In this document: positions 21,042 to 45,928 of the stretch, in pieces
Position numbering within the stretch: position 1 is the stretch's first letter
Layout of the letters: the number at the start of each line of letters is the position of its first letter
Notes under the pieces: generated by a model
The model's database searches: none
Told to the model about the DNA's origin: nothing
Seen by the model: only the letters and a program-made list of their open reading frames with translations
Made by a program: the position numbers and the translations under genes
Source: Candidatus Sumerlaeota bacterium
GTDB lineage: Bacteria > Sumerlaeota > Sumerlaeia > MWCT01 > JAUWMI01
Direction: 5' to 3'
DNA length: 64,000 nt
NCBI GenBank assembly: GCA_030613245.1
Contig: JAUWMI010000019.1
Span: 6,728-70,727 of the forward strand

Positions 21042-21080
21042 AAACCACGACGGCCCGACGTGCATGCGCCTTAGGGACAT
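21042..21080. repeat. repeat family B copy
   Basis: aaaccacgacggcccgacgtgcatgcgccttagggacat. Confidence 0.8.
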
Positions 21081-27564: not shown

Positions 27565-27607
27565 ATCCCCCCACGGTTTCTTAGAGCACCTAACAAAAAT
27601 AACTGTC

Positions 27608-27646
27608 AAACCACGACGGCACGACGCGAATGCGCCTCAGGCGCAT
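27608..27646. repeat. repeat family B copy
   Basis: aaaccacgacggcacgacgcgaatgcgcctcaggcgcat. Confidence 0.8.
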
Positions 27647-27669
27647 AAGCCGAATTAAAGATTCAAAAT

Positions 27670-27717
27670 GTAGGGGCGGGGTTAGCCCGCCCTGGGGCGA
27701 GGAGACCTCGCCCCTAC
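27670..27717. repeat. REP-type element, family A, double inner hairpin
   Basis: gtaggggcggggttagcccgccctggggcgaggagacctcgcccctac. Confidence 0.8.
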
Positions 27718-28575
27718 AAGGCATGTACGTTGTGTCGTAGTGGTTAATGCGCCTTAGGTGCACTTAGGCGAATAAAAACTTCATTTTGATAGTGTTTCTT
27801 AGTTTTTAATCATCACAACAGTTACTCGCCCAGAGAATCCGGCAAGAGCAGGACGCTCCTAGCGTGGCCTACGTGCAGTTGTATTGTTCGTAAGATCCCC
27901 CCGATCCCCGTCGTGATGGTTTATGTCCACTATCGGTGCTGCGTGCCGGTCGTCGCACGGCTTCGCCGGCATAGAAGCCATAATTGATATTAATGGTGCA
28001 GCCAACATCGCATAGGTCTGGTTCTTAATCAGAAAAGAGAGAATACAGAGAATTGGGTAATTTGAGGTTCTCTATTCGAAAGGAGCCGCTTTGCACAATC
28101 CCTTTCTTGTGGGCTTGTGTAAAAATTTTATACACAAACACTCCCAGATACCATAGACTATTGCTGGGTAAGAGATAAGCCTCTTTTATTGAAAGTTGGA
28201 GATTGAGAAAAGCTCTTGACAACATGCCGAAGGGGAGTAATAAAAAGTGTATATAAGAAGGAAAGAAAAGCCGCTGCTGGTTTTGTGCGCGCTATTTTGT
28301 GATAATTTTCTCAAGTTGCTGTGCCCAGGAATAATACGGATTTAACAATGTAAGCCATTTTGGCCGGAAAGATACAGGGAGCCAAGTCGTTTAGGTTTCC
28401 TAAATTTAAGGAATGATTTTGTGAAAATTAGAACATGGCCGAGCAGCGTTATCAATTCTAATCTCTTGGGTTTTCCTGGCTTATCTCGTTCTTTTACATG
28501 AATTACTGCTCTAAGATGCGCTCAATGCGCGTGAATTTGCCTTATTTCAAATTCTGTTAGAAGGAGAGTATCGGT

Positions 28576-29406
28576 ATGGCACCGCGAATTGGAGTCTATA
28601 TTTGCCATTGTGGGTCGAATATCGCTGGCAAAGTGCGCACTGACGATGTTGTGGAGTACATGAAATCCCTGCCACAGGTTGTCATTGCAAAAGATTATAA
28701 GTTTATGTGCTCGGATCCCGGACAGGAACTCATTCAAAAAGATATTAAAGAACACAGGCTTGAGCGTGTGGTGGTGGCATCGTGCTCGCCGCTAATGCAC
28801 GAGCCAACGTTTCGTCGCGCCTGCGAGGACGCGGGGTTGAACCGCTATTTGCTTCAGATGACCAACATCCGGGAGCAGTGCTCCTGGGTAACCGAGGACG
28901 CTAATGCAGCCACGAATAAGGCCATGGCTTTGATCCGTGGAGCTGTGCATCGTGCAATGTACCAGGAGCCGCTGGAAACCAAGGAAGTTGACATTCATCC
29001 CGACACGCTTGTTGTCGGCGCTGGCATTGCCGGAATTCAGGCAGCGCTTGACCTGGCAGACGCGGGCAAGAAGGTCTATCTGGTCGAGAAAGAGCCAAGC
29101 ATCGGTGGCCATATGTCGCAATTCGATAAGACCTTTCCAACGCTCGATTGCGCAGCATGCATTCTGACCCCGAAAATGGTGTCAGTAGGAAAGCATCCAA
29201 ATATAGAGTTGATGACCTACAGTGAAGTGAAAGAAATTTCGGGGTATATAGGTAATTTTAAGGTAAAGATAACGCAGAAGGCGCGGTATGTTGATGTGGA
29301 TAAGTGCAACGGGTGTGGCCTGTGCTGGGAGAATTGCCCTTCGTTCACTCTTCCAAGGCGAAGAAGGATACGGATAGGGGATAAGGTGATAAAAGAGGTG
29401 AAGTAG
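28576..29406 (+). CDS. hdrA: HdrA-like flavoprotein, N-terminal ~255-residue fragment followed by 21 unrelated residues
   Basis: RIGVYICHCGSNIAG, CSPLMHEPTFR, NIREQCSWV, VVGAGIAGIQAALDLA, PSIGGHMSQFDKTFPTLDCAACILTPKM, CNGCGLCWENCP, then SFTLPRRRRIRIGDKVIKEVK-TAG. Strong SD AAGGAGAG. Confidence 0.75.
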   Translation: MAPRIGVYICHCGSNIAGKVRTDDVVEYMKSLPQVVIAKDYKFMCSDPGQELIQKDIKEHRLERVVVASCSPLMHEPTFRRACEDAGLNRYLLQMTNIREQCSWVTEDANAATNKAMALIRGAVHRAMYQEPLETKEVDIHPDTLVVGAGIAGIQAALDLADAGKKVYLVEKEPSIGGHMSQFDKTFPTLDCAACILTPKMVSVGKHPNIELMTYSEVKEISGYIGNFKVKITQKARYVDVDKCNGCGLCWENCPSFTLPRRRRIRIGDKVIKEVK

Positions 29407-29492
29407 AACGGTTAGTTCGGTTAAGCCGTTAGTCGGTTAAAAGGGGGAGATACCTTCCTTGCGGAGGGTAGTTGAGAAGCAGGGTTGAAGCA

Positions 29493-29843
29493 ATGAGACT
29501 GCGAGAGATATGCGATACATTGAAATGTGAGGTTATGGGGGGCGAAGATCAGCTTGATATGGAGATAGACGTTGGCTGTGGGGCTGATTTGATGAGCGAT
29601 GTTCTCGCGTTTATCAAGCCGAATGCGCTGATGCTTACAGGATTGGTAAATGCGCAAGTAGTGCGAACGGCGGATATAGCGGATGTAAAGGCGATAGTAT
29701 TTGTACGAGGGAAGAAACCGGATAAGGATACGATAGCGTTGGCAAAGGAGAAGGGTATACCGCTGCTCTCTACGAAGCTCTTAATGTATGAATCTTGCGG
29801 ACGGTTATACGCAGGAGGGCTTCGAGGGGGAAGTGAAGTTTAA
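29493..29843 (+). CDS. DRTGG domain-like protein
   Basis: ~116 aa. DLMSDVLAFIKPNALMLTGLVNAQVVRTA..AIVFVRGKKP..AKEKGIPLLST resembles DRTGG proteins found in hydrogenase-regulator clusters. Confidence 0.6.
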   Translation: MRLREICDTLKCEVMGGEDQLDMEIDVGCGADLMSDVLAFIKPNALMLTGLVNAQVVRTADIADVKAIVFVRGKKPDKDTIALAKEKGIPLLSTKLLMYESCGRLYAGGLRGGSEV

Positions 29844-29891
29844 CGTGTTGACAATGCGCCTTGTGCGTGAGGGTGGCGGATACAGGAAAAA

Positions 29892-30332
29892 GTGGAGACC
29901 TTGTTTTCGCAGCAATTCTTAGTTGAGGGTGGGGATTTCAGGAATGCAGGTAATGCTTCGACACAGATAAAGACCATACTCAAGCAGATAGGGATACCAG
30001 GAGAGGTAATAAGGAGAGTGGCGATAGCGGCGTATGAAGCAGAGATGAACATGGTGATGTATGCGAAGCGAGGGGTGATGACGCTGCGTATAGAGCCGAT
30101 GAAAGTTGAGATATCTGTGGAGGATGAGGGACCCGGGATAGAAGACATAGAGTTAGCGATGCAGGAGGGGTATTCGACGGCATCGCCGGAGATACGAGAG
30201 ATGGGATTTGGAGCGGGGATGGGTTTGCCGAACATAAAGAAGAATTCAGATGAGTTTTCAATTGCTTCCACGGTTGGAAAAGGAACGCAGTTGAGTATAC
30301 GGATAAGGAATAGGGTGGTGCAAAGCGAATGA
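29892..30332 (+). CDS. GHKL ATPase, anti-sigma-factor-type Ser/Thr protein kinase-like (RsbW/SpoIIAB-like)
   Basis: AAYEAEMNMV (N-box-like), EDEGPGIEDIELAMQEGYST, GFGAGMGLPNIKK. GTG start. Its stop overlaps the next start in ATGA. Confidence 0.7.
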   Translation: METLFSQQFLVEGGDFRNAGNASTQIKTILKQIGIPGEVIRRVAIAAYEAEMNMVMYAKRGVMTLRIEPMKVEISVEDEGPGIEDIELAMQEGYSTASPEIREMGFGAGMGLPNIKKNSDEFSIASTVGKGTQLSIRIRNRVVQSE

Positions 30333-31654
30333 AGACCTATTCTAGTTCAGTTTATGTGAACGTGGAGAAATGTAACGGGCGAATGATGTGTATGAGGATA
30401 TGCCCAACGGAAGCAATTCGGGTTCGTAATGGCAAAGCCGAATTGATAGTGGAGCAATGCATAGACTGCGGTGAGTGTATCAAGGTATGTCCAAATCGAG
30501 CGATAATACCAGCGACAGATTCTTTTTCCGACCTGTCGCATTTCAAGCATACGGTGGCAATACCGTCACCGGTACTCTATGGACAGTTTGGCCGAGACGT
30601 TACGCCGGAGATGATACAGGGTGCGTTACTGAAGCTGGGGTTTAATGAGGTTGCGGACATAACGGGAGCGTGCGAGGCCGTATCGCTGGCAATACGAGAG
30701 CATCTGGAGAATTATACACTTCGTAAGCCGCTGATATCGTCGTTTTGCCCGACGATAGTGCGCTTGATACAGGTGAAGTATCCGGATCTGGCGGAGCTGG
30801 TGGTGCCGTTTGAGTCGCCCAAGGAGATCGTGGCGAGGGAGGTAAAAGCGCAGAGGTCAAAGGAATTGGGTTTTAAGGAAGACGAGATAGGGGCGATATA
30901 TCTGACGCCGTGTCCTTCAAAGATGATAGACATAAAGCTTCATCCGCGTAAGGAGAAGTCTTTTATTGATGGAGCGATTTCAATAGCGGAGATATACAGC
31001 AGTGTAGTGGCACTTATGGCAGAGATGAGGAACGTGACACCGCCGGAGGTATCGATGAATAACGTCTCCGGAATAGGACTAGAGTGGACGATGCTCGGGG
31101 GACAAACGGCGTCGCTGCAGATGGAAAACAGTCTGGCAGTGGATGGACTGAAGAACGTGATCAGGGCTTTTGAGGATATAGAAAATGGTAGGCTACGGGA
31201 TATTGACTATATCGAGTGTCATTCGTGTCCGGAGGGGTGCATAGGAGGCTCGCTGACAGTTGAGAATCCATATGTATCGAGGAGTAATTTAATCGGGTTG
31301 ATGAAGCGATACGGAGATGAACCGAAGCGGAGCCGGGAGGAGATACAGGGGCTGTACAACAAGAAGTTTTTTTTCACGGAGAGGCGTTTGCCAGTAACTC
31401 CGCGTCAGCGGCTGGATGAGAATATCACGAAAGCAATAGAGAAGATGAGGAAGAAGGACGCGATATATCGAAATTTGCCGCAGATAAATTGTGGATGTTG
31501 TGGTGCCCCGAACTGTGGAGCTTTTGCCGAGGATGTGGTGCAAGGTGTGGCACAGATAACGGATTGCATATTTATTTATCAGGAGCGCCTGAAAGCAACG
31601 GGCCAGGAGATGCTGCGCTTGCTCAATAAGAAGCCAGGCTACATCAAAGATTAA
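30329..31654 (+). CDS. [FeFe]-hydrogenase-like protein, putative sensory (HydS/group C-like), with C-terminal Cys cluster
   Basis: N-terminal ferredoxin motifs (CIDCGECIKVCP). H-domain motif variants SSFCP, TPCPSK, ECHSCPEGCIGGS. C-terminal CGCCGAPNCGAF. Confidence 0.75.
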   Translation: MKTYSSSVYVNVEKCNGRMMCMRICPTEAIRVRNGKAELIVEQCIDCGECIKVCPNRAIIPATDSFSDLSHFKHTVAIPSPVLYGQFGRDVTPEMIQGALLKLGFNEVADITGACEAVSLAIREHLENYTLRKPLISSFCPTIVRLIQVKYPDLAELVVPFESPKEIVAREVKAQRSKELGFKEDEIGAIYLTPCPSKMIDIKLHPRKEKSFIDGAISIAEIYSSVVALMAEMRNVTPPEVSMNNVSGIGLEWTMLGGQTASLQMENSLAVDGLKNVIRAFEDIENGRLRDIDYIECHSCPEGCIGGSLTVENPYVSRSNLIGLMKRYGDEPKRSREEIQGLYNKKFFFTERRLPVTPRQRLDENITKAIEKMRKKDAIYRNLPQINCGCCGAPNCGAFAEDVVQGVAQITDCIFIYQERLKATGQEMLRLLNKKPGYIKD

Positions 31655-31688
31655 TGCGCCTACCCTGGCGCATAAAGGATGAAGGGCG

Positions 31689-32027
31689 ATGAAATTAGAC
31701 CAGATCGTTCGCCAATTGGGAGTGAGGGTTCGCACCACAGAGGATAAGGTGAAGGAGGTAGAGGTTAAGGGCGGATATGCGAGTGATTTGTTGAGCGACG
31801 TCATAGGAAATGCGAAGGAAGGGTATTTGTGGGTGACGTTGCAGACGCATGCGAATATATTGGCGGTAGCGAAGTTGAAGGATATCGCGGCGATCTTGTT
31901 GGTGAATAGCCGTAAGCCGGACGCCGATACGCTCGAAAAGGCAGAGAAGGAAGGGATTGTGTTGCTAGAGAGTGATCTTTCGACGTTCGAGCTGGTCGGA
32001 AGATTGTATGAAATGGGGATACGGTGA
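31689..32027 (+). CDS. DRTGG domain-like protein (second copy)
   Basis: 112 aa. ASDLLSDVIGNAKEGYLWVTLQTHANILAVA..AILLVNSRKP..AEKEGIVLLES is a paralogue of 29493..29843. Confidence 0.6.
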   Translation: MKLDQIVRQLGVRVRTTEDKVKEVEVKGGYASDLLSDVIGNAKEGYLWVTLQTHANILAVAKLKDIAAILLVNSRKPDADTLEKAEKEGIVLLESDLSTFELVGRLYEMGIR

Positions 32028-32100
32028 TCGCCGAGGCGATGAGGGGCATTCTTCAGAGTGCCCACGCTTTGGCGTTAAGCTGATTGAAAGATGAAGGGAG

Positions 32101-32823
32101 ATGGCGAAAGGAATTGCCGCAGATTTGCATATACATACGTGTCTGTCGCCATGCGGCGAGTTGGAGATGTCGCCCAAAGGAATCGTTGAGGAGGCTTTGC
32201 GAAAGGGAATTGATATAATCGCCGTCTGCGATCACAACAGTGCGGAAAATGCACCCGCGGTGATCGAGGCTGCAAGGGGCAGCGGACTGCTGGTGCTGCC
32301 AGGTATAGAGATTACAACACGGGAAGAAGTTCATATAGCCGGGCTCTTTGATAGATGCGCCGATGCTCTGAAGGTTCAGGAGTTTGTGTATCAGCATTTG
32401 TATGGAGAAAATGACGAAGAGGCGTTCGGCGTGCAGCCGGTGGTGAACGCAGAGGGTGAAGTTTTGGAACTTAACCAGCGGCTACTGATCGGCTCAGCCG
32501 ATATTTCGGTCGAGGAGACGGTGGAGCAGATTCACAGGGCAGGGGGTTTGGCGATAGCGGCACACATAGACCGGGAGGCTTTTGGGATAATAGGGCAGCT
32601 GGGATTTATTCCGGATGACCTGGAGCTGGATGCGCTGGAGATTTCGAGCCGGACGACGGTAGAGGAAGCGAGGAGGAAATTCCAGGGGTGTGAAAGGTAT
32701 TTCATTTTCAGGTCTTCGGATGCGCATCGTTTGAAAGAGATAGGGCAGGCGGTAACGGAGATGGAGCTCGGTGAGGTCTCTTTCAAAGCGATTCGAGAGA
32801 TGTTAAGGACGATTCACCCATAA
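32101..32823 (+). CDS. PHP-domain phosphoesterase
   Basis: ADLHIHTCLSPCG..IIAVCDHNS..AAHIDRE..SSDAHRL are the His/Asp metal-ligand blocks of the PHP superfamily. Confidence 0.8.
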   Translation: MAKGIAADLHIHTCLSPCGELEMSPKGIVEEALRKGIDIIAVCDHNSAENAPAVIEAARGSGLLVLPGIEITTREEVHIAGLFDRCADALKVQEFVYQHLYGENDEEAFGVQPVVNAEGEVLELNQRLLIGSADISVEETVEQIHRAGGLAIAAHIDREAFGIIGQLGFIPDDLELDALEISSRTTVEEARRKFQGCERYFIFRSSDAHRLKEIGQAVTEMELGEVSFKAIREMLRTIHP

Positions 32824-32871
32824 AATTGGTGACTGATTTTGAGCAATTTTGGAAACGCTCGCCTACGGTAA

Positions 32872-33396
32872 TTGACTGTGCAGGATTTATCGCTTCACAT
32901 ATTGGATATAGTAGAGAATTCAATAACGGCTGGAGCGAAGAATGTTGAGATAAGGCTGATAGAGGATACAGAGGTGGATGTTCTGATTCTGGAGATAGAC
33001 GATGATGGCGTGGGGATGGATGAGGAGATGGTGCGCAAGGCGGCAGACCCGTTTGTGACGAGTCGAACTGAGAGAGACGTGGGTCTCGGTTTGGCGCTTC
33101 TTGCGCAGGCCGCAGAGATGGCGAACGGGAAGATAACCATAGAATCGAAGCGGGGCAAGGGGACACACGTAAAGGCGACGTTTCAATACAGTCATATAGA
33201 CAGAAAACCGTTGGGGAATGTAGGGGATACGCTGATAACTTTGATATGCGGGAATGCAGAGATAGATTTCACATTCTATCACAAGTGGCCGCTACGGGAA
33301 GTAAGGATCTCGACAAAGGAGATGAAGGAACGCCTTGGACGGGCGAACCTTGACTATATAGACACTGCTCGAGAGGTGCGAAGAAGACTCCAATAG
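32872..33396 (+). CDS. histidine-kinase-like (GHKL) ATPase, second copy
   Basis: LDIVENSITAGA (N box), IDDDGVGMD (G1), DVGLGLALL (G2). TTG start as given by the ORF track. Confidence 0.7.
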   Translation: MTVQDLSLHILDIVENSITAGAKNVEIRLIEDTEVDVLILEIDDDGVGMDEEMVRKAADPFVTSRTERDVGLGLALLAQAAEMANGKITIESKRGKGTHVKATFQYSHIDRKPLGNVGDTLITLICGNAEIDFTFYHKWPLREVRISTKEMKERLGRANLDYIDTAREVRRRLQ

Positions 33397-33435
33397 GTAA
33401 GCCAGACGGCTCGCGTCTGGGACAGGAGGCAGGAG

Positions 33436-33903
33436 ATGAAGGATAGCGTGCTGGAGCTCGAAAAGGTCCAGGAAATTATTCAGCGGTGGAACGGGAAGCA
33501 AGAGTTTCTTATTGAAATGCTTCAGGACGTTCAGGCGGAATATCGTTATTTGCCCAGGGAGGTGCTTGAGGAGATTGCCCGAACCATAGAGGTTCCACTT
33601 GGTAGGGTATATCATTTGGCGACGTTTTTTAAGGGGTTCAGTCTAACCCCGAGAGGAGAGTATGAAGTAAGCGTTTGTATGGGTACGGCATGCCATGTAA
33701 AAGGGGGGAAGCGGATACTGGATGCATTTTCGCGGCAGTTGAAGATCGAGGAGGGTGGGACTACAGGGGATCAGAAATTCAGTCTGGACTCGGTTCGATG
33801 TCTTGGATGTTGCGGTCTGGCACCAGTCGTGACGATAAATGAAGATCTTTACGGGAATATAAATTCGACAAGGGTAGCTGCGATATTGAAAAAATATAAA
33901 TAA
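33436..33903 (+). CDS. NuoE/HndA/HydC-like [2Fe-2S] subunit
   Basis: VCMGTACHVKGG..VRCLGCCGLAPVVTIN holds the four Cys of the NuoE-type cluster. Confidence 0.9.
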   Translation: MKDSVLELEKVQEIIQRWNGKQEFLIEMLQDVQAEYRYLPREVLEEIARTIEVPLGRVYHLATFFKGFSLTPRGEYEVSVCMGTACHVKGGKRILDAFSRQLKIEEGGTTGDQKFSLDSVRCLGCCGLAPVVTINEDLYGNINSTRVAAILKKYK

Positions 33904-33943
33904 GCCGGACGGCTCCGGTCTGGCAGAAGGTGGTGCATAGAAG

Positions 33944-34327
33944 ATGAAAAAGCTCACGATTACAGACCTTGAGAAGCTGCGCCAAAAGATTCAGGAAGAC
34001 CATACTGTGCGAGAGGGAAAGGCACTTGCTACGATAAACCTGCATATGGGAACTTGCGGGATTGCTGCTGGGATGAGGAAGGTCATGACGGCCTTGTTGC
34101 AGGAGATTGAAGCAAAGGACATTAAGAATGTGCGCGTGAGCACGTCTGGGTGCGCGGGTTTATGTAGCCGAGAGCCCATGGCAACGGTTCTGATTGCAGG
34201 GCAACCACCGGTAAAATATGCTGACCTTACGGATGAAAAGATTCGGAGAATACTGAATGAGCATGTGCTTGGTGGCAACCTTGTTAAGGAATATGTGCTC
34301 GCAGTAGGAAGCGAGCGCGTGGGATAG
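33944..34327 (+). CDS. HndB-like thioredoxin-fold [2Fe-2S] ferredoxin
   Basis: NLHMGTCGIAAG..STSGCAGLCSREPMATV. Confidence 0.8.
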   Translation: MKKLTITDLEKLRQKIQEDHTVREGKALATINLHMGTCGIAAGMRKVMTALLQEIEAKDIKNVRVSTSGCAGLCSREPMATVLIAGQPPVKYADLTDEKIRRILNEHVLGGNLVKEYVLAVGSERVG

Positions 34328-34411
34328 CAAGGGACGGGGAGGAAAAGTAAAAGGAAATGGCGGTATTGAAAGACCAGAAATTAGCATGTTTATACCCAGG
34401 AGGTTGAAGAA

Positions 34412-36226
34412 ATGCCATACCGACTGCATATGTTGCTATGCGCGGGTACGGGCTGTGTGAGTAATCGCTCGTTGGAGGTAAAAGAGGCTTTGGAGAAGGA
34501 GATTCAGCAACGCGGTCTTGAGAGCGAGATTCAGGTGATTGCGACAGGTTGCAATGGGTTTTGCGGTGTAGGACCAATAGTACTTGTGCAACCAGACGGA
34601 ATTTTTTACCAGCAGGTAAAGGTAAGGGATATTCCTGCACTGGTAGAGGAGCACCTGGTAAAGGGGAGACCGTATAAGAAGCTGATGTTTACGCCGAGCA
34701 AAGAGGCCGAGCCAATACCGAAGATGAATGATATACCTTTCTTCGGTAAGCAGATGTTGATAGCATTAAGGAACCGTGGGCTTATTGATCCAGAGAACAT
34801 TGAGGAGTATATTGCTCGAGATGGATACAAGGCCCTGGCGAAAGTCCTCTCTTCTATGACACCGGAACAGGTGATCGAAGAGGTAAAGGTATCAGGCCTG
34901 CGCGGGCGAGGTGGTGGTGGATTCCCAACAGGATTAAAGTGGGAAGTGTGCCGCAATGCGATCGGGGATGAGAAATACTTAATTTGCAATTGCGATGAGG
35001 GCGACCCGGGAGCATTTATGGATCGAAGCATTGTTGAGAGCGATCCGCATTCTGTCATTGAGGGAATGGCGATAGGCGCATACGCAGTTGGGATACTGCA
35101 AGCATATATTTACGTTCGAATGGAATATCCGTTAGCATTGAAGCGTTTTATTCTGGCGCTTGACCAGGCGCGGGAATACGGGCTTATCGGAGAGAATATT
35201 CTGGGGACTAGCTTCAGTTTTGACATAGAGGTTCATCGTGGTGCGGGTGCGTTTGTCTGCGGGGAGGAGACGGCTCTGATAGCTTCAATAGAGGGTAAGC
35301 CAGGCGAGCCGCGAGCGAAGTATGTCTACCCTGCGCAACAGGGTCTGCGAGATATGCCTACGTTGATAAACAATGTCGAGACATGGGCCAACATACCCGT
35401 AATAATTCAACGTGGTGCGAAATGGTTCTCCAGTATAGGCACGCGTGATGTCAGCGAATCGGAACAGGGGGGAAGCACTGGCACGAAGGTCTTCTCGCTT
35501 GTCGGGAAGGTAAACAATACTGGGCTGGTTGAGGTCCCGATGGGGATAAAGTTGCGTGAGATAATTTACGATATAGGCGGGGGAATAGCTGGAGGAAAAC
35601 GATTCAAAGCAGTTCAGACAGGCGGCCCTTCAGGCGGTTGCCTTCCAGAGGAGTTACTGGATTTGCCAGTAGATTTTGATCGTTTGCTGAGTGTGGGCTC
35701 GATGATGGGTTCTGGCGGGATGATAGTGATGGATGAAGAAGATTGTATGGTAGACGTTGCGCGATACTTTATAGATTTTCTGAACGGTGAATCGTGCGGG
35801 AAGTGCACGCCTTGTCGAGAAGGTCTGCGGCAGATGAGAGAGATTCTGAACCGAATTTGCGACGGAAAAGGTGAGGATGCGGATATACAGAAGTTAGAAG
35901 ATTTGTCAGAGCTGATGGTGGAAGGGTCGCTGTGTGCGCTGGGCGGTACTGCACCGAATCCGGTGTTAAACACGCTGCGATATTTCAAGGATGAATACGT
36001 TGCGCATATAAAGGATAGGCGGTGCCCGGCGGGCACTTGTCAAGCGCTCATAACCTACCGGATTGACGCTGAAAAATGCACGGGCTGCGCGCTTTGTGCG
36101 AAGCATTGTCCGGTAAATTGTATAAGCGGTGAGCCGAAAAAGCTGCATACGATTGAAATATCAGCGTGCATCAAGTGCGGCACTTGCTATGATGCGTGCA
36201 GGTTTGATGCAGTAATACGGAAATGA
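34412..36226 (+). CDS. NuoF/HndC/HydB-like NAD(H)-binding FMN subunit with extra Fe-S domains
   Basis: N-terminal CAGTGC..GCNGFC thioredoxin-like 2Fe-2S. GRGGGGFPTGLKW FMN site. ESCGKCTPCREG N3 cluster. C-terminal 2x CxxCxxCxxxC. Confidence 0.9.
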   Translation: MPYRLHMLLCAGTGCVSNRSLEVKEALEKEIQQRGLESEIQVIATGCNGFCGVGPIVLVQPDGIFYQQVKVRDIPALVEEHLVKGRPYKKLMFTPSKEAEPIPKMNDIPFFGKQMLIALRNRGLIDPENIEEYIARDGYKALAKVLSSMTPEQVIEEVKVSGLRGRGGGGFPTGLKWEVCRNAIGDEKYLICNCDEGDPGAFMDRSIVESDPHSVIEGMAIGAYAVGILQAYIYVRMEYPLALKRFILALDQAREYGLIGENILGTSFSFDIEVHRGAGAFVCGEETALIASIEGKPGEPRAKYVYPAQQGLRDMPTLINNVETWANIPVIIQRGAKWFSSIGTRDVSESEQGGSTGTKVFSLVGKVNNTGLVEVPMGIKLREIIYDIGGGIAGGKRFKAVQTGGPSGGCLPEELLDLPVDFDRLLSVGSMMGSGGMIVMDEEDCMVDVARYFIDFLNGESCGKCTPCREGLRQMREILNRICDGKGEDADIQKLEDLSELMVEGSLCALGGTAPNPVLNTLRYFKDEYVAHIKDRRCPAGTCQALITYRIDAEKCTGCALCAKHCPVNCISGEPKKLHTIEISACIKCGTCYDACRFDAVIRK

Positions 36227-36321
36227 TGTTACCTGGCGTTTCGCCGGCTGTCTGGCATGGCGAAGCGCGTCTCAGATAACAACGGTACAGCAGGGGATAG
36301 TAAACTAAAAAGGAGTAGACC

Positions 36322-38079
36322 ATGGCAACAGTAACTATTGATGACCAGAAGCTGGAGATAGAAGACGAGAAGACGATACTTGATGTGGCGAAAAAGCTGG
36401 GGATAAGAATTCCAACGCTCTGCCATAACGAGATGATTGAGCCGTATGCAGCGTGCAGAATATGTTCGGTTGAGATAGTGAGAGGGAAGCGGCGCAGAAT
36501 AGTAACGGCGTGTAATTATCCAGTTTCGGACGGGCTGGTGGTTTATTCGAATAATGAGCGGGTGCGGAAGATACGCAAGATAATACTGGAGTTGTTGCTG
36601 GCGCGATGTAGTGCGGAGGTGCCGATCCTAAAGGAATTGGCTGAGGAATATGGGCTTGAGGAATGGCGGTTCGGTCGCGGGAAAGAAGAATGCATACTGT
36701 GCGGTCTGTGCGTAAGGGTATGCGATGAGATAGTCGGTGTGCAAGCGATAGCGTTTGCGAATAGAGGAGCGGATAGGGAGGTGACCACGCCATTTGGAAC
36801 AGAGTCGGAGGCGTGTATCGCGTGTGGGGCGTGTGCGTTTGTGTGTCCGACAGGTGCAATAAAACTAGAGGAACTAGAGGGCCTCCAGATAGTTCACCAG
36901 GATTTGTGCTTAGGTCCGGCAAGGGCGATAGCGGTTCCGTTCTTGCAAGCCGTGCCGAATGTTCCAGTGATTGATAAAGATGCCTGTATTCATTTCCGAA
37001 CCGGTGAGTGCCACATCTGTGAAAAAGTTTGTGAGCCAGAGGCGATTAACTTTGAAATGGAGGAGAAGGAGATCGAGGTTGAGGTCGGAGCAGCCATTCT
37101 CGCCACCGGTTTTGAACCGTTCGATCCTAGTGTAATAACGCAATATGGATATGGCAGAATGAAGAACGTCATAACCTCGCTGGAATTTGAACGAATGAAT
37201 TGTGCAGCCGGCCCCACAGCTGGCAAGATTTTAATGGTTGATGGTAAGGAGCCAAAGAGTGTGGGGATTATCCATTGCGTAGGGAGTCGCGATAAGGAGT
37301 ATCACGAGTACTGCTCTGCTGTGTGTTGTATGTATGCGCTGAAATACGGCCACCTGCTGAAGGAAAAGATTAATGCTGAAGTGTATAACTTCTATATAGA
37401 TTTGCGCTGCTATAAAAAGGGCTATGAGGAGTTTTATCACCGATTGCTGGAAGAAGACATCCGCTTTGTGCGTGGTAAGGTAGCAGAGGTCTCCGACTTT
37501 GCCATTTATGAGAAAGAAAGAGGCAAACTGATCATCCGTTGTGAAGACACTCTGATCGGTATTATCCGCAGAATCCCCGTGGATATGATAGTTCTCTGTA
37601 CCGCAATCCAGGCACGATCTGATGCTCTGGAGACCGCCCGCACATTTACGATCGGACAAGGTAAGGACGGCTTCTTTATTGAAAAGCATCCAAAGCTTGC
37701 ACCGGTGGCAACGATGAACGACGCCATTTATATTGCCGGTGTATGCCAGGGGCCAAAGGATATTCCAGAGTCTGTAGCACAGGGGTCTGCGGCGGCGTCT
37801 GCTGCGCTCTCTGCTCTGGTTAAAGGGAAAGCGGAAATCGAATCAATTGTTGCAGTGATTGACGAGGATAAATGCGCAGGATGCCGCATTTGCAACGGGT
37901 TGTGCCCCTCAACGGCAATTAGCTTTGATGAGGAGAAAAAGATCTCAGTAGTCAACGAGGCGTTGTGTAAGGGGTGCGGAACATGCGGGGCAGGCTGTCC
38001 AAGTGGTGCTATTACCAGTCGCCACTTCACTGACCGCCAGATAGTTGCGGAAATTGAGGGGATTATGCAGGGGCCCTGA
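36322..38079 (+). CDS. chimeric Fe-S flavoprotein: N-terminal 2Fe-2S plus 4Fe-4S module (~200 aa) fused to the C-terminal ~385 aa of HdrA
   Basis: TLCHNEMIEPYAACRICSVEI..ACNYPV (2Fe-2S), CILCGLCVRVC, CIACGACAFVCP. Then HdrA blocks ARAIAVPFLQAVP, CIHFRTGECHICEKVCEP, ATGFEPFD, YGYGRMKNVITSLEFER, CVGSRD..YCSAVCCMYALK. C-terminal CAGCRICNGLCP and CKGCGTCGAGCP. Confidence 0.8.
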   Translation: MATVTIDDQKLEIEDEKTILDVAKKLGIRIPTLCHNEMIEPYAACRICSVEIVRGKRRRIVTACNYPVSDGLVVYSNNERVRKIRKIILELLLARCSAEVPILKELAEEYGLEEWRFGRGKEECILCGLCVRVCDEIVGVQAIAFANRGADREVTTPFGTESEACIACGACAFVCPTGAIKLEELEGLQIVHQDLCLGPARAIAVPFLQAVPNVPVIDKDACIHFRTGECHICEKVCEPEAINFEMEEKEIEVEVGAAILATGFEPFDPSVITQYGYGRMKNVITSLEFERMNCAAGPTAGKILMVDGKEPKSVGIIHCVGSRDKEYHEYCSAVCCMYALKYGHLLKEKINAEVYNFYIDLRCYKKGYEEFYHRLLEEDIRFVRGKVAEVSDFAIYEKERGKLIIRCEDTLIGIIRRIPVDMIVLCTAIQARSDALETARTFTIGQGKDGFFIEKHPKLAPVATMNDAIYIAGVCQGPKDIPESVAQGSAAASAALSALVKGKAEIESIVAVIDEDKCAGCRICNGLCPSTAISFDEEKKISVVNEALCKGCGTCGAGCPSGAITSRHFTDRQIVAEIEGIMQGP

Positions 38080-38281
38080 CGTGCAATTGACTTGAGTCTA
38101 CCGATGTAAAGTAGGAATAAGCAGGTTTTCATGATTGAGCGACATGCAGGAGAGCCATGTCGCTTAATTTTCCTATATGCCTCTTTTTTACACACCCTCT
38201 TTACATGCCTTGCCCAATGCCCCTTGCTCTTATCGTTCAAATAGGTGCTTGGGCCAGCCTTGGTGCGCGGCGTGGAAATAG

Positions 38282-38309
38282 GGAGGGCAGGTTTGAAACC
38301 TGCCCCTCC
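38282..38309. repeat. REP-type palindrome, family A variant
   Basis: ggagggcaggtttgaaacctgcccctcc. Inner stem as in the copy at 13130. Confidence 0.7.
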
Positions 38310-38464
38310 ACTTGGAAACGATATAAATATACAACAGATGTTGCAGCGTATACTATTGTTGTCTCAAGGGTTACATTTCTAATTAAACATTAATGGACAG
38401 TTTTTTGCCTCGAAGGAATGGATTCCTGAGAGCCATTTTTCTTGAATATACCAGCCATTTTTTC

Positions 38465-38493
38465 TTGACAGAGAGAAGCAAGATGACATATAT
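38465..38493 (+). promoter_or_regulatory. candidate promoter of the rrf2-cysH-sat operon
   Basis: TTGACA at 38465-38470, then a weak AT-rich -10 (atatat/tatatg) after 17-18 nt; ~37 nt upstream of the ATG. The -35 overlaps the second copy of a direct repeat AGCCATTTTTCTTGA. Confidence 0.3.
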
Positions 38494-38529
38494 GACTTAC
38501 ATTACCAACATAATTAACATGGGGCTATC

Positions 38530-38976
38530 ATGAAAATTTCGGCAAGATGTGACTATGCATGTCGCGCAGTGCTTGAACTGACACTCGCTTACCCGAGCGG
38601 GGAATTGCTCAGGATTTCTGACATTGCGGCGAGTCAGAATATTCCTCCCAAATATCTTGTTCAGATATTGATCCAGCTCAAGCGAGCAGGACTGTTAGCA
38701 AGTACGCGGGGGAAAAGCGGCGGATATCGCCTGGCAAAGCGTCCGGACCAGATCTGTGTGGGTGATGTTGCAAGGGCAATAGACGGACCGCTAATGCTGA
38801 TTGGGTGCATTGACCCTGGGGCCAAAAAGGCGTGTCCACAGTTTGAGAGCTGTGCTTTCAGGCAGATGTGGAAAGAACTTGAGAAGAAGATAACCGGGTT
38901 ACTGGATAGTGTGACCTTTGAAGATATCGGCAATAGATTGAAGGATTCGGTGGAAATAGCGATGTACGAAATATAA
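38530..38976 (+). CDS. Rrf2-family transcriptional regulator (IscR/CymR-like) with three clustered Cys
   Basis: MKISARCDYACRAVLELT..ISDIAASQNIPPKYLVQILIQLKRAGLLASTRGKSGGYRLA. Cys ligand candidates in GCIDPGAKKACPQFESC. Confidence 0.9.
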   Translation: MKISARCDYACRAVLELTLAYPSGELLRISDIAASQNIPPKYLVQILIQLKRAGLLASTRGKSGGYRLAKRPDQICVGDVARAIDGPLMLIGCIDPGAKKACPQFESCAFRQMWKELEKKITGLLDSVTFEDIGNRLKDSVEIAMYEI

Positions 38977-39032
38977 TTTTTTGAGACAAATGTTTACCAA
39001 GTTAATCATATTAGTTTTAATGGGAGGCGTAT

Positions 39033-39785
39033 ATGGCTCAAGAACAGAACACTCAGAAACTAGAAAGGGAGATCCAGCCGCTCCAGGACAGTGACGCGGA
39101 ACAGGTGGTGCGCTGGGCGCTCGAGCGTTTTGATGATCAGGTTGCTCTGGCCTCTAGCTTTGGCGTTGAGGATATGGTTCTGACTGATATGATGCTGCGT
39201 ATATCTCCACGTGCCCGCATCTTTACCCTCGATACTGGGCGGCTTCCGAAGGAGACGTATGACCTGATGGAGCGGGTGCGCGAGCGCTATGGAGTGAGAA
39301 TTGAGGTCTTTGCTCCCCAGAGTTCTCAGCTCGAGAAGATGATTTCAGAGAGCGGGCCGAATGCGTTTTATCGTTCGATTGAGTTGCGCAGGCTATGCTG
39401 CAACGTGCGTAAGGTGGAGCCACTTGGCCGCGCATTACAGAGTCTGTCGGCGTGGATTTGTGGCCTGAGACGCGCACAGGCTGTAACACGCCAGGAGCTA
39501 AAAAAGCTGGAAATTGATGAGGCGCACGGCGGAATGCTGAAGATTAACCCCCTTCTTGAGTGGAGTGACAAGGAGGCCTGGAACTACGTCATGGAGCGCG
39601 ATGTTCCGTACAATGTGCTTCACGATCGGAGCTACCCAAGTATTGGGTGCGCACCATGCACGCGAGCAGTGCAGCCAGGGGAAGACATCCGGGCGGGCCG
39701 CTGGTGGTGGGAGACTCCAGAACAAAAGGAATGTGGCCTTCATCGGACGGGTTCTTCAAAGACTGATACTACAGGAGGGCAATAA
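39033..39785 (+). CDS. cysH: adenylylsulfate/phosphoadenylylsulfate reductase, Fe-S type (assimilatory)
   Basis: PP-loop-like ALASSFGVEDMVL, RLCCNVRKVEPL plus IGCAPCT (CC..CxxC cluster ligands), C-terminal KECGLH. Confidence 0.9.
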   Translation: MAQEQNTQKLEREIQPLQDSDAEQVVRWALERFDDQVALASSFGVEDMVLTDMMLRISPRARIFTLDTGRLPKETYDLMERVRERYGVRIEVFAPQSSQLEKMISESGPNAFYRSIELRRLCCNVRKVEPLGRALQSLSAWICGLRRAQAVTRQELKKLEIDEAHGGMLKINPLLEWSDKEAWNYVMERDVPYNVLHDRSYPSIGCAPCTRAVQPGEDIRAGRWWWETPEQKECGLHRTGSSKTDTTGGQ

Positions 39786-41008
39786 TGGCTGGTGGTGGAA
39801 TAGCACCCCATGGAGGGCGGCTGGTCAATCGAATGGCCTCGCCGGATGAGCACGAGAGCTTGCTGAGCGAAGCGCAGGGCCTGAAACGTGTGCAGTGCAA
39901 GGCACGTGAACTGGGTGACCTCACAAAGATCGCGATCGGGGCCTACAGTCCCCTGGAAGGATTCATGACGCAGGCTGATTACGAGCGCGTGGTTGAAGAA
40001 AAGCGCTTGAATAGCGGGTTGGTGTGGACAATACCGATCACGCTGGCCGCAGGTCGTGAGGATGTGCGGGGTATCGGGCCGGGCGAGCGAGTGGCGCTTG
40101 TTGATGCAGAGCAGAACTTGCGTGGAGTGATGGATATCCATGACATCTATGCTTACGATAAGGAGCGTGAGGCGAGTTGTGTTTACCTGACCACGGATCA
40201 GGAACATCCGGGGGTGCGAGCGCTGTTTGAACGTGGTGAGTTGCTGCTTGGCGGATCGGTGACCGTATTTAACCAGAGTGGGCCGCATCCTTATGCTCCG
40301 TATTATCTGAAACCAGAGCAGACGAGAGCTACGTTTCAAAAGCGAGGGTGGCGACGGATCGTTGGATTTCAGACGCGCAATCCGCTCCACCGGGCGCATG
40401 AGTACATACTTAAGTGTGCAATGGAAATTACGGACGGGCTGTTTTTAAGCCCGCTGGTGGGTGAGACGAAACCAGGGGACATCCCAGCATCAGTGCGTAT
40501 GCAATGCTATGAGGCGATGCTTCGCTCCTACTTTCCAGCGCAGCGCGTCGTATTGGGTGTAATTGACGTGACAATGCGCTATGCAGGGCCGCGGGAGGCG
40601 GTTTTTCATGCACTGATCCGGCAGAATTTCGGATGTACGCATTTCATTGTCGGGCGCGACCATGCGGGCGTGGGCCAGTTCTACGGGCCATTTGATGCCC
40701 ACAGGCTATTTGAGGAGATAGGGGAAAGAGAGATTGGGATCCAACCGCTCTTCTTCGACGGTTCATTTTACTGCCGACGATGCCTGGCAATAGTGACCGC
40801 GCGAACCTGTCCGCACAAGGAAACAGAGCACCGGCGGCTGAGCGGGACCGAGGTGCGCGAGCTGCTGGCGCGCGGCGAGCAGCCGCCAGAGGAGCTCATG
40901 CGGCCCGAGGTCGCAGAAATTCTGCTTGAGGCGTATCGTGACGGCACATGGCAGACGCCGCAGGGCGGCCGTCCCGCCAAGGATCAAACAACCACAAAAC
41001 AGAGATGA
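39785..41008 (+). CDS. sat: sulfate adenylyltransferase (ATP sulfurylase)
   Basis: GFQTRNPLHRAHEYI and IVGRDHAGVG motifs. Start overlaps the cysH stop (TAATG). Confidence 0.95.
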   Translation: MAGGGIAPHGGRLVNRMASPDEHESLLSEAQGLKRVQCKARELGDLTKIAIGAYSPLEGFMTQADYERVVEEKRLNSGLVWTIPITLAAGREDVRGIGPGERVALVDAEQNLRGVMDIHDIYAYDKEREASCVYLTTDQEHPGVRALFERGELLLGGSVTVFNQSGPHPYAPYYLKPEQTRATFQKRGWRRIVGFQTRNPLHRAHEYILKCAMEITDGLFLSPLVGETKPGDIPASVRMQCYEAMLRSYFPAQRVVLGVIDVTMRYAGPREAVFHALIRQNFGCTHFIVGRDHAGVGQFYGPFDAHRLFEEIGEREIGIQPLFFDGSFYCRRCLAIVTARTCPHKETEHRRLSGTEVRELLARGEQPPEELMRPEVAEILLEAYRDGTWQTPQGGRPAKDQTTTKQR

Positions 41009-41121
41009 TTGATCTTCAGATATCACTGGTTGGGTTTGTGATTGGCATCCTTGTCGGGCTGACAGGTGTTGGTGGGGGTGTGCTCATGACTCCCCTGCTA
41101 ATAGCTTCAGACTTTTCATAA
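41005..41121 (+). pseudogene. 38-codon remnant of a TauE/SafE-type sulfite/anion exporter gene
   Basis: ATG overlaps the sat stop (ATGA). MIDLQISLVGFVIGILVGLTGVGGGVLMTPLLIASDFS-stop. LTGVGGGxLMxP is the first-TM signature of the ~250-aa TauE/SafE family. Not in the ORF track (<60 aa). Confidence 0.55.
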
Positions 41122-41142
41122 ACAAAGGTGGAGGGGTTAGAG

Positions 41143-42135
41143 ATGGCGGATAAGTTTATAGAGGATAAAGACAATAAAATAAACGTAGATACACAAATTG
41201 AAGGGAAGACAGGGACGATAGATTTTAACCTCCTCAAATCCGGTGGTTTGATTAAGCAGAGACAAATAAATATGTTTACCGTGAGGTTGCGGTGCCCTGG
41301 AGGTAGGGTTCCACTTTCCAAATTAGAGAAGATTGTGGAAGTGGCAAAGAAATATGCCGGCGATTATGTGCACCTGTCTTTTCGGCAGTCTATTGAATTG
41401 CCTTATGTGGATTACCGCAACTTTAAAGTCATATACGAGGAACTAGGCGAAGCAGATCAAAAAGTAGCCTCCTGTGGCCCACGAGTCAGGGTGCCCACGG
41501 CTTGTTCGGGGTGCGAATATAATCCCAATGGACTCACGGACACACAGAAGATGGTAAGGTTGGTAGACGAGAAATTTTTCGGGCATAGGCTTCCTCACAA
41601 GTTTAAGATATCGTTCTCGGGTTGTCCCATAGATTGTGCCAGAACAAGCGAGAATGATCTGGGCTTTCAAGGTGCGGTAAAGCCAGAATGGGATGAAGAG
41701 ACTTGCATTGGTTGCCGTATTTGCTCGAAGGCATGTAGCGAGGGAGCTATTGAGAGCGATGCAGAGACGGGCAAACCGATATATTATCCTGAGAAGTGCC
41801 TGTATTGCGGAGACTGTATCCGTTCCTGCCCTACGGATAGCTGGAAGGAGAAAGTTAAGGGATGGATGGTACGAGTTGGTGGCAGGCACGGAAGGCATCC
41901 TATTGTTGGGCATAGAATTGCTGAATTTATTTCAGATGAGGATGTGCCGAAGTTTATCGAAGCTATCATAAAATGGTATGAAGAAAATGGGAAAGAATAT
42001 GGGAGGACAAGAATAGGGGTTATCTTGCAGATTCTCGAAAAATGGAAAGACTTTCTCAGCACCATGAGAGAAGTATTCAAGGATAGAATATTAGCAAACC
42101 CGATGTCCCCAACGAAGAATGAGATACATTTTTAA
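41143..42135 (+). CDS. small siroheme-type sulfite/nitrite reductase-like protein with inserted 2x[4Fe-4S] ferredoxin domain
   Basis: RLRCPGGRV..HLSFRQSIELP, CGPRVRVPTACSGCEYNP, SGCPIDCARTSENDLGF, CIGCRICSKAC..CLYCGDCIRSCP. SD AAGGTGGAGGGG precedes ATG 41143. Confidence 0.75.
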   Translation: MADKFIEDKDNKINVDTQIEGKTGTIDFNLLKSGGLIKQRQINMFTVRLRCPGGRVPLSKLEKIVEVAKKYAGDYVHLSFRQSIELPYVDYRNFKVIYEELGEADQKVASCGPRVRVPTACSGCEYNPNGLTDTQKMVRLVDEKFFGHRLPHKFKISFSGCPIDCARTSENDLGFQGAVKPEWDEETCIGCRICSKACSEGAIESDAETGKPIYYPEKCLYCGDCIRSCPTDSWKEKVKGWMVRVGGRHGRHPIVGHRIAEFISDEDVPKFIEAIIKWYEENGKEYGRTRIGVILQILEKWKDFLSTMREVFKDRILANPMSPTKNEIHF

Positions 42136-42166: not shown

Positions 42167-42309
42167 GCGAGGGGAACCCTTTGGAAAAAGGGTTGCCCCT
42201 CGCGCTCCCCTCCTAAACCTTTAGCTGCGGGCGATTTCATCCGCCTCCACCAGGCTTCGGCGAATGAAATCGCCATTAGCCGCTGGTTCACCTTTTGGTG
42301 AACCAGGCA
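42167..42309. repeat. family C structured repeat, second copy
   Basis: Aligns with 6626-6767. Lies 32 nt downstream of the sulfite reductase stop. Confidence 0.85.
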
Positions 42310-42487: not shown

Positions 42488-42513
42488 AATCTTGCTACCG
42501 AGTAATCTGGAGC

Positions 42514-44148: not shown

Positions 44149-44207
44149 AGCCGCGCGCCCCCTGTTAATATAGAGCACTGTCGGATTAAGGACGATTACT
44201 CCACAGG

Positions 44208-45857: not shown

Positions 45858-45928
45858 CGTCTTCCCCCTTGCCAACCCTGGCCGTCTAAGAAGGCAAATG
45901 CTAAGGCACGATGTACGCAATTTGGCGT

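Follow-up and report, generated by a model that had tools for sequence, protein, structure and literature searches.

We analysed a stretch of 64,000 nucleotides from a contig of a Candidatus Sumerlaeota bacterium (JAUWMI010000019.1, positions 6,728 to 70,727; hereafter the window, with positions counted from its first letter). Between positions 28576 and 38079, 11 close-packed open reading frames (ORFs) follow one another on the + strand, all with intact frames (Table 1). According to Pfam and NCBIfam they encode, from 5′ to 3′, the N-terminal half of HdrA (ORF276), a DRTGG-domain protein, a SpoIIAB-like HATPase_c_2 protein, an [FeFe]-hydrogenase-like protein, a second DRTGG-domain protein, a PHP-domain protein and a HATPase_c protein, followed by NuoE-like, HndB-like and NuoF-like proteins and, last, ORF585. 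Judged from the sequence, the 11 genes probably form an operon, the structural core of which would encode one multi-subunit redox complex. An original prediction, made for the last four genes from the letters of the DNA, had described them as a HydBC-type module paired with an HdrA-type flavoprotein, and its coordinates and domain calls for all four, which lie on the + strand, agree with the ORF list and with Pfam.

The HydBC-type module, also called Bfu, is genuine as far as sequence can tell, and the NuoF-like and NuoE-like proteins are full-length HydB and HydC types. The NuoF-like protein (Pfam domains Complex1_51K, SLBB and NADH_4Fe-4S), which has a [4Fe-4S] besides its terminal clusters, matches over its whole length HydB of the NiFe-Bfu hydrogenase (7t2r_B, E 3e-249) and HydB of Acetobacterium woodii HydABC (7q4v_B, E 2e-246). 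Both alignments take in the N-terminal thioredoxin (Trx)-like [2Fe-2S] domain (residues 5-80) and the two C-terminal Fer4 motifs (550-600; 2x[4Fe-4S]), extensions that are absent from complex I NuoF. Its motifs are C10/C15/C47/C51, GRGGGGFPTG and CTGCALCAKHCP / CIKCGTCYDAC. For the NuoE-like protein (Pfam 2Fe-2S_thioredx, E 1.6e-49; cysteines C81, C86, C122 and C126), the best PDB match is HydC of NiFe-Bfu (7t2r_C, E 6e-44). PDB matches of the HndB-like protein (E 7e-14) lie in the Trx domains at the N-termini of StnB and NfnB, and its motif H34-x3-C38 ... C70-x3-C74 offers three Cys and one His at the positions where Trx-like [2Fe-2S] proteins have four Cys. Sequence features of the Bfu family (Schut et al. 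2022) are found here: a BfuB with a 51-kDa domain for flavin mononucleotide (FMN) and NAD(H), an N-terminal [2Fe-2S] and C-terminal 2x[4Fe-4S]; a NuoE-like BfuC gene beside the BfuB gene; and a BfuA-type Fe-S conduit, which is residues 1-186 of ORF585. The third-substrate module on this conduit would be HdrA.

HdrA itself is encoded in two pieces on either side of these genes. In phmmer searches of PDB sequences, residues 3-256 of ORF276 correspond to residues 12-266 of HdrA 8rvu_a (E 2e-104), confirming ORF276 (28576-29406), which the original prediction had proposed as a partner of the split FAD (flavin adenine dinucleotide) domain, as the complementary half. Residues 160-584 of ORF585 correspond to HdrA residues 249-655 (E 9e-113). 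Together the halves span HdrA 12-655 with all checked cofactor ligands, ORF276 contributing about the N-terminal 40% and ORF585 about the C-terminal 60%. The NCBIfam HdrA2 profile is covered at positions 1-256 by ORF276 and at 262-641 by ORF585; the two polypeptides score 398 and 430 bits, below the family cut-off of 1100 bits, and neither half passed any NCBIfam model. This coverage puts the break immediately behind the first CxxCxxCxxxCP motif in the inserted ferredoxin domain, which is C244-P255 of ORF276 (nucleotides 29305-29340). ORF276 also contains a 4-Cys domain at its N-terminus, the beginning of the Rossmann fold for FAD (GAGIAG), DCAAC and a conserved 21-residue tail; its GxGxxG and DCxxC motifs and the cysteines of the N-domain do not vary among 36 homologues. 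The HdrA half of ORF585, which fills the C-terminal two thirds of that protein, has the other Cys motif of the inserted ferredoxin domain (the second one; C222, C230, C233, C237), the remaining part of the thioredoxin reductase (TrxR)-like FAD domain and the C-terminal 2x[4Fe-4S] domain. Without exception, 43 homologues share the ligands of cluster HA4 (C319/C331/C335/C336) and K341, the counterpart of the lysine that sits at FAD N5 in 5ODC (K409). Every Fe-S Cys motif that we examined is likewise invariant. The full HdrA feature set is present, but distributed over ORF276 and ORF585 instead of one polypeptide.

Ahead of its HdrA half, ORF585 carries a BfuA-like domain. Residues 4-182 match 9mqx_A, the BfuA of the tungsten aldehyde oxidoreductase Bfu complex (WOR-Bfu; phmmer E 5e-37). 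A Foldseek comparison of the AlphaFold2 (AF2) model of ORF585 aligns it with the same chain over 186 columns (root-mean-square deviation 1.7 Å, 40% identity), and aligns the HdrA part with 5odc_A and 8rvy_A at 46% identity. Pfam detects Fer2_4 (3-78), Fer4 (122-180) and Fer4_21 (511-565) in ORF585 and no Fe_hyd_lg_C (H-cluster) domain. The BfuA-like domain has ligands for one [2Fe-2S] (C34/C45/C48/C64) and 2x[4Fe-4S] (C124-C134 and C165-C175), with the cysteines invariant in the alignment, and neither a His-ligated cluster nor an H-cluster. Its CxxCxxCxxxCP at C165-P176 belongs to the complete BfuA-like fold and precedes the second HdrA motif. The fourth gene encodes an N-terminal HydA/NuoG-like Fe-S domain followed by the C-terminal half of HdrA, with no H-cluster, and on this point the original prediction was right.

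This arrangement is far from confined to the window. ORF585 has more than 100 full-length homologues (582-624 aa, 57-91% identity), and nearly all of the best 120 homologues of ORF276 are stand-alone proteins of 275-310 aa, the exceptions being one of 203 aa and one of 377 aa, each at 74% query coverage. The original prediction had proposed a search of public genomes for the fusion downstream of nuoEF-like genes. In our locus scan, which took one genome per species and returned 80 loci, about 43 carried the full fusion, in metagenome-assembled genomes (MAGs) labelled as more than 10 phyla. The labels of these MAGs comprise Acidobacteriota, Zixibacteria, Armatimonadetes, Eubacteriales, Ignavibacteria, Aminicenantes, Calditrichaeota, Dehalococcoidia, Anaerolineae, Chloroflexia, Planctomycetaceae, Verrucomicrobiota, Desulfobacterales, Myxococcales and two 'archaeon' bins. 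A separate HdrA_N gene stands upstream of the fusion in 39 loci and in the window, with nuoE and nuoF almost always between the two. Despite its taxonomic spread the family is compact in sequence, as only ~15-20 clusters span the junction at 50% clustering. The short form of the locus reads hdrC-hdrB-hdrA_N-nuoE-nuoF-fusion-mvhD-mvhG-mvhA, and the long form adds the DRTGG, kinase, HydS-like, DRTGG, PHP, kinase and hndB genes, as in the window. Most relatives have hdrC-hdrB upstream and mvhD-mvhG-mvhA, for a [NiFe] hydrogenase, downstream; Desulfobacterota have mvhD, extra HdrA copies and hdrCB without a [NiFe] hydrogenase. Classical unsplit hdrCBA-mvhDGA operons were also among the returned loci (L048, L049, L052 and L068). 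The original prediction had left room for the fusion being a common, well-described subunit of a known enzyme: common it is, but we found no description of it. In the source annotations the halves appear as 'FAD-dependent oxidoreductase', '4Fe-4S dicluster domain-containing protein' or 'heterodisulfide reductase subunit A'.

Variants of the locus show further ways of joining the two modules. Seven loci (L030, L031, L033, L034, L036, L038 and L056) encode translational HdrA_N::NuoE fusions of 424-450 aa (e.g. L031:3388-4668), three of which were confirmed by Pfam. Considered with the BfuA::HdrA_C fusions, they indicate that each end of the Bfu module has, in some lineage, a covalent tie to one half of the inserted ferredoxin domain. 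A single-chain HdrA-like protein of 660 aa (P0133) has a BfuA-like domain inserted, in the order TrxR-like N part, first Fe-S motif, acidic linker, BfuA-like domain and HdrA C part. Neither the N-terminal domain of HdrA nor the C-terminal ferredoxin domain is present, and the protein could be an intermediate stage of evolution or have been invented in parallel. The HdrA_N genes of Anaerolineae (L039, L041 and L044) have an in-frame TGA, probably encoding selenocysteine, where DCxxC has its second Cys, and ~20 nt further downstream a hairpin that is conserved (GGATGCCGGTCGGCATCC); this combination argues that these N-halves are translated genes. Quick neighbour-joining distance trees, which are too unreliable to decide between a single and a multiple origin of the split, interleave split and unsplit forms of the HdrA C-half and, for the BfuA-like domain, distribute the fusions over several blocks between BfuA proteins that are stand-alone or fragmentary.

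Two other layouts were seen. At L056 the HdrA_N::NuoE gene directly precedes the BfuA::HdrA_C gene, and no nuoF was detected nearby. In Dehalococcoidia (L022:8858-12000 and L025:11848-15000), a second BfuA-like, NuoE and NuoF set lies right downstream of the fusion, in the place of mvhDGA.

In the window, tblastn (E 0.1) detected no homologue or remnant of HdrB, HdrC, MvhD, MvhG or MvhA anywhere in the 64 kb. The original prediction had reported that no HdrB/HdrC or MvhD gene follows the fourth gene, only a 450-bp gap and then rrf2. This is borne out for the window but does not hold as a general trait, because most relatives carry hdrCB and mvhDGA. A 76%-identical relative (L006) has both; a 91%-identical one (L005) lacks mvhDGA, and its contig ends before the upstream part, where hdrCB would lie. 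In L087-L089, from other metagenomes, neither hdrCB nor mvhDGA stands beside the cluster, and the mutL and ferredoxin genes found upstream in the window are found there in the same place. The minimal cluster recurs in four further contigs from other samples, and the absence of hdrBC and mvhD is a peculiarity of the window's lineage. The split-HdrA/Bfu arrangement is conserved and under purifying selection: the ratio of non-synonymous to synonymous substitution rates (dN/dS) is 0.17 for the fusion, 0.08 for NuoF and 0.33 for NuoE against L005, and 0.07 for HdrA_N, 0.08 for the HydS-like gene and 0.14 for the fusion against L087, while neighbouring genes (rrf2, PAPS reductase and ATP sulfurylase) give 0.15-0.23.

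Within this minimal lineage the nuoE-hndB-nuoF segment has been replaced. Between the window (33390-36300) and L087 (7130-9910) it is a divergent allele, with amino-acid identities of 46% for NuoE, 57% for HndB and 72% for NuoF, whereas the genes that flank it in L087-L089 are 92-97% identical (in L087, HdrA_N 96%, HydS-like 97% and fusion 92%). The genes of the Bfu core thus act like a cassette that can be exchanged.

The only H-cluster-like domain of the operon belongs to the HydS-like protein (30329-31654), which has 2x[4Fe-4S], an H-cluster-type domain whose motifs are altered (SSFCP, TPCPSK and ECHSCPEGC), and a C-terminal PF04060 Fe-S motif. It is a putative H2 sensor. Group C3 genes usually cluster with group A3 HydABC genes (PMC11406978), and the DRTGG, kinase, PHP and HydS-like genes together represent the usual putative H2-sensing regulatory set of HydABC operons.

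We favour, with moderate confidence, the view that the structural genes specify a single complex in which two bifurcation modules, the FMN of Bfu and the FAD of the split HdrA, are nested, the Bfu chain being tethered to the low-potential output of HdrA. The presence of two flavin sites in one complex, FMN and FAD, as the original prediction had proposed, also appears right. ORF276 and ORF585 would reassemble into one FAD domain, and the inserted ferredoxin domain, with its clusters HA5 and HA6, would be completed in trans, with ORF276 supplying motif 1 and ORF585 motif 2. Beside HA5/HA6, the point at which methanogen HdrA delivers low-potential electrons to ferredoxin or polyferredoxins, the Fe-S chain of Bfu would be held. 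In the Hdr complexes of methanogens, HA4 takes the high-potential electron from FAD to HdrBC, and the low-potential electron travels via HA3 to HA5/HA6 and then from HA6 to ferredoxin or a docked polyferredoxin; cluster MB1 of MvhB is 9.8 Å from HA6 (PMC13580544). The inserted ferredoxin domain is the low-potential exit also according to a preprint on class II benzoyl-CoA reductase (BCRII). In the proposed complex the BfuA chain would exchange electrons with HA5/HA6, and the Bfu core, with its FMN, NAD(H) site and ferredoxin-binding C-terminal clusters, would replace free ferredoxin or polyferredoxin as the partner of the low-potential branch; electrons would pass between the NAD(H)/ferredoxin sites of that core, at FMN, and the low-potential branch of the HdrA FAD. 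In BCRII the N-terminal bundle of BamG (BfuC) engages BamI (BfuA), so tethers at the BfuC N-terminus and the BfuA C-terminus are geometrically compatible.

In full clusters the complex would be completed by HdrBC, providing a high-potential disulfide-type acceptor, and by MvhADG, the [NiFe] hydrogenase. Electrons from H2 would then pass through Mvh and MvhD to FAD, HdrBC receiving the high-potential electron and Bfu, NAD+ and ferredoxin the low-potential one, with reverse flow during fermentative H2 production, which would make such clusters an H2-linked double-bifurcation or double-confurcation machine. In the window's lineage HdrA may have its donor or acceptor encoded at another site, or may lack one. 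A bolder proposal, which we make only tentatively, is that these loci define a widespread, undescribed class of nested double bifurcation, in which the low-potential electron of the HdrA FAD is handed via the tethered BfuA to the FMN/Fe-S core of Bfu. H2 (via Mvh) and a high-potential disulfide-type acceptor would then drive the simultaneous reduction of NAD+ and of very low-potential ferredoxin, or the reverse in fermentation, and in the window the minimal form would be an autonomous Bfu-HdrA core that is paired with a new partner or substrate not linked to it.

Several points weigh against a single nested complex. The direction of electron flow is inferred by analogy, through thermodynamic reasoning only, and the window locus lacks hdrBC, mvhD and a hydrogenase large subunit. 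The AF2 models cover two monomers, ORF276 and ORF585, each alone. A structure prediction of ORF585 alone had been suggested originally, and it gave a confident BfuA-like domain (predicted local distance difference test, pLDDT, of 79-95 per 10-residue block over residues 1-180) but a linker region, residues 187-215, that is predicted to be flexible (pLDDT < 50; predicted template-modelling score 0.45). With so flexible a connection between BfuA and HdrA, the covalent junction alone is no proof of an electron path. In the model of ORF276 the N-terminal domain is confident, and the FAD/cluster loop 174-195 falls below 50 and is disordered. The flexible linker and the disordered loop, as modelled, would fit obligate assembly, without proving the path.

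The nearest alternative accepts the same parts but takes HdrA as an electron-transfer adaptor that does not bifurcate. The full clusters would then be a [NiFe] analogue of HydABC, in which NADH and reduced ferredoxin are interconverted with H2 via Bfu, the HdrA Fe-S clusters, MvhD and MvhAG, and the window would hold a leftover oxidoreductase of NADH:ferredoxin type. In its favour, the Bfu core is able to bifurcate on its own (PMC9304861); there is a NiFe-Bfu hydrogenase, whose HydB (7t2r_B) the NuoF-like protein matches best in the PDB; BamE of BCRII has a second, non-bifurcating FAD (BCRII preprint); and a HydS-type regulatory set normally accompanies H2-evolving HydABC. However, the hallmark lysine at FAD N5 (K341) and the HA4 ligands are invariant, and most clusters keep hdrCB, which would be pointless for a plain wire; we consider this reading unlikely. 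Still less probable are two independent systems side by side, in which the HydS-like protein with NuoE, HndB, NuoF and the BfuA-like part would be a split hydrogenase of HydABC type and the HdrA halves would be separate or idle. The order DRTGG, kinase, [FeFe]-like, DRTGG, PHP, kinase, nuoE, hndB, nuoF is indeed that of a classical hydABC operon, and tblastn detected no other hydrogenase in the window. Yet the short-form loci L008, L009, L012, L016, L045 and L047 keep the split HdrA and nuoEF without a HydS-like gene, the HdrA_N::NuoE fusions link HdrA with the Bfu module, and the H-cluster motifs of the HydS-like protein deviate from the catalytic consensus.

The original prediction had also suggested that the fusion might be a dead recombination product, a claim refuted by its wide conservation, by the HdrA_N::NuoE 'Rosetta-stone' fusions and by purifying selection. 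A decaying remnant left by the loss of hdrCB and mvhDGA would be in keeping with the presence of both in L006 and their absence from the window, but it is very improbable in view of the 11 intact frames, the dN/dS of 0.07-0.33 for the structural genes (0.07-0.17 for the HdrA halves and NuoF), no higher than in their neighbours, the recurrence of the minimal cluster and the good ribosome-binding site (RBS) of ORF585 (AGGAG 8 nt before ATG). As for an assembly chimera, the junctions lie in conserved Fe-S motifs, where mis-joins are conceivable; more than 40 independent contigs, however, which come from various assemblers and projects and include some of several hundred kb or of chromosome scale, show the same junctions, which leaves this explanation next to no credit. 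We reject both readings.

Both modules belong to known families, and their coupling has one characterised precedent that we found, the Bam-Bfu system of BCRII, Bam[(BC)2DEFGHI]2, which is wired differently. It likewise joins a HydBC/Bfu-type module (BamGHI) to an HdrA-type FAD module (BamE), and also has the HdrBC-like BamD and the MvhD-like BamF, its two modules working in series, confurcation and then bifurcation. There the Bfu chain enters BamE on the input side, through the C-terminal ferredoxin domain and BamF, whereas in the window family it is tethered at the low-potential output side. The inserted ferredoxin domain of BamE leads to the tungsten enzyme BamBC; in the window family the Bfu genes are encoded inside that domain. 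HdrA is duplicated in BCRII (tandem-HdrA BamE) but split in the window family, whose usual partner is a [NiFe] hydrogenase, with no tungsten aldehyde oxidoreductase (AOR) subunit. Pfam detected neither AOR nor MvhD (FlpD) domains among the operon genes scanned, and the operon therefore falls outside the Bam-Bfu type. Bam-Bfu is the only Bfu type with an HdrA module in Schut et al. 2022, whose text contains no Hdr-Mvh-linked Bfu and no split HdrA. In the full-text literature that we covered, including Schut 2022, the 2026 BCRII preprint and Greening 2024, with the HdrA review of Appel et al. 2021 outside that coverage, we found no published split HdrA enclosing nuoEF/Bfu genes.

The halves also resemble the HdrA of methanogen MvhADG-HdrABC and of the Mvh/Fdh-Hdr-Fmd supercomplexes (46% identity, with the checked cofactor ligands present), and the hdrCB and mvhDGA gene order is kept in the window's relatives. 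In methanogens HA5/HA6 are likewise hard-wired to a partner Fe-S protein, MvhB or FmdF. Methanogen HdrA, however, is a single chain with a polyferredoxin partner toward Fmd, whereas the window family has two polypeptides and an NADH/ferredoxin Bfu module as partner; its hosts are bacteria without methanogenesis, and the window, without HdrBC and Mvh, has no adjacent hdrB, hdrC, mvhD, mvhG and mvhA within its 64 kb. With [FeFe] HydABC and [NiFe] HydABCSL the operon shares HydB and HydC homologues, an HndB-like subunit and upstream regulatory genes. Unlike in HydABC, its BfuA-like subunit has no H-cluster domain and no direct contact with a NiFe module and continues into HdrA, and no HydA with Fe_hyd_lg_C stands downstream of hydB, as it would in group A3; in lacking a His-ligated cluster the subunit resembles BfuA of WOR-Bfu (9mqx_A). 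NfnABC and StnABC likewise fuse a BfuA-like Fe-S domain to a second flavoprotein, giving an FMN and FAD complex, but there the second flavoprotein is a GltD-like NADPH-binding domain, whereas in ORF585 it is the C-half of the split HdrA; Pfam detected no GltD or NADPH domain in ORF585.

Table 1. Features of the operon and its upstream region, in window coordinates
Feature	Position	Strand	Basis or remark
Apparently non-coding leader/promoter region, ~0.8 kb	27794..28575	+	blastn
HdrA N-half, ORF276, 276 aa	28576..29406	+	phmmer, NCBIfam, AF2
DRTGG-domain protein, regulatory set	29472..29843	+	Pfam; kept in long-form clusters
HATPase_c_2 protein, SpoIIAB-like Ser-kinase/anti-sigma type	29892..30332	+	Pfam; NCBIfam spIIAB E 5e-14, under its cut-off
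HydS-like [FeFe]-hydrogenase-like protein, 441 aa	30329..31654	+	Pfam Fe_hyd_lg_C, PF04060
Second DRTGG-domain protein	31689..32027	+	Pfam
PHP-domain phosphoesterase	32101..32823	+	Pfam
HATPase_c histidine-kinase-like ATPase	32872..33396	+	Pfam, NCBIfam
NuoE/HydC/BfuC-type [2Fe-2S] subunit	33436..33903	+	Pfam, PDB sequence search
HndB-like Trx-type [2Fe-2S] protein	33944..34327	+	weak Pfam match, PDB sequence search
NuoF/HydB/BfuB-type FMN/NAD(H) subunit	34412..36226	+	Pfam, PDB sequence search
ORF585, fusion protein: BfuA-like + HdrA C-half	36322..38079	+	Pfam, phmmer, Foldseek
BfuA-like domain of ORF585, residues 1-186	36322..36879	+	phmmer, Foldseek of AF2 model
Variable linker of ORF585, residues 187-196	36880..36909	+	homologue alignment, AF2
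HdrA C-half of ORF585, residues 197-585	36910..38079	+	phmmer, NCBIfam, Foldseek

The operon is flanked upstream by mutL (- strand) and a ferredoxin gene, and downstream by rrf2 and genes for PAPS reductase, ATP sulfurylase and sulfite reductase. A functional tie to rrf2 and the sulfate-assimilation genes was rejected, as the downstream genes differ in L087-L089. The ~0.8-kb region upstream of hdrA_N has ~91-94% DNA identity to L087-L089 (blastn) and may be a long leader or regulatory region. No Rfam family was found at gathering thresholds in the whole window, this region included. Over 27.5-38.6 kb promoter-like sites occur at chance level (13 found, 12.9 expected), and terminator-like sites number 12 against 7.6 ± 3.0 expected from shuffles, none of them convincingly placed. 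Two small downstream ORFs, one at 38157-38393 of the window and one of 74 aa in L087, show no conservation at the protein level.

Other features of the window were noted in passing. A family of short intergenic repeats (65-82% identity) is present at 27568-27793, 6532-6766, 21002-21080 and 42196-42309; by comparison with L087-L089, its copy at ~27585-27793 has been inserted, which suggests a mobile or recently gained element (of the kind of repetitive extragenic palindromes, REP, or miniature inverted-repeat transposable elements, MITE). GC skew is strongly positive (0.16-0.33) over 28000-42000, which takes in the operon and the sulfate-assimilation genes, and lies at about -0.09 to +0.12 elsewhere; the probable cause is that coding strands are rich in purines along an extended run of co-directional genes. 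The nearest named homologues of MutL (25112-26968, - strand) are all from Candidatus Sumerlaeota / BRC1 (44-51% identity), which points to a deep relative of that phylum as the source of the window. A large gene contains, at 2391-4174, ~13 imperfect copies of a coding repeat of 69-75 nt, of GGGL..C.G.I.NN.I..N type and beta-helix-repeat-like. At 42500-45860 and 53420-53957 lie paralogous genes in tandem, repeating every ~1.7 kb at 71-82% identity, along with a three-copy 135-nt tandem repeat.

Class II benzoyl-CoA reductase is the only characterised case that we found of two bifurcating modules in series, and the split-HdrA family would add another to it, with different wiring and a much wider distribution, in Acidobacteriota, Aminicenantes, Zixibacteria, Ignavibacteria, Chloroflexota, Planctomycetota, Desulfobacterota and others, usually with a group 3c-type [NiFe] hydrogenase. 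The reading of 'Mvh-Hdr' and 'NuoEF' genes in MAGs of uncultured anaerobes would change with it. The family would also offer a natural split-protein system for probing how the low-potential branch of HdrA is gated, and the minimal variant seen in the window, without HdrBC and hydrogenase, isolates the Bfu-HdrA core and would suit expression and structural work.

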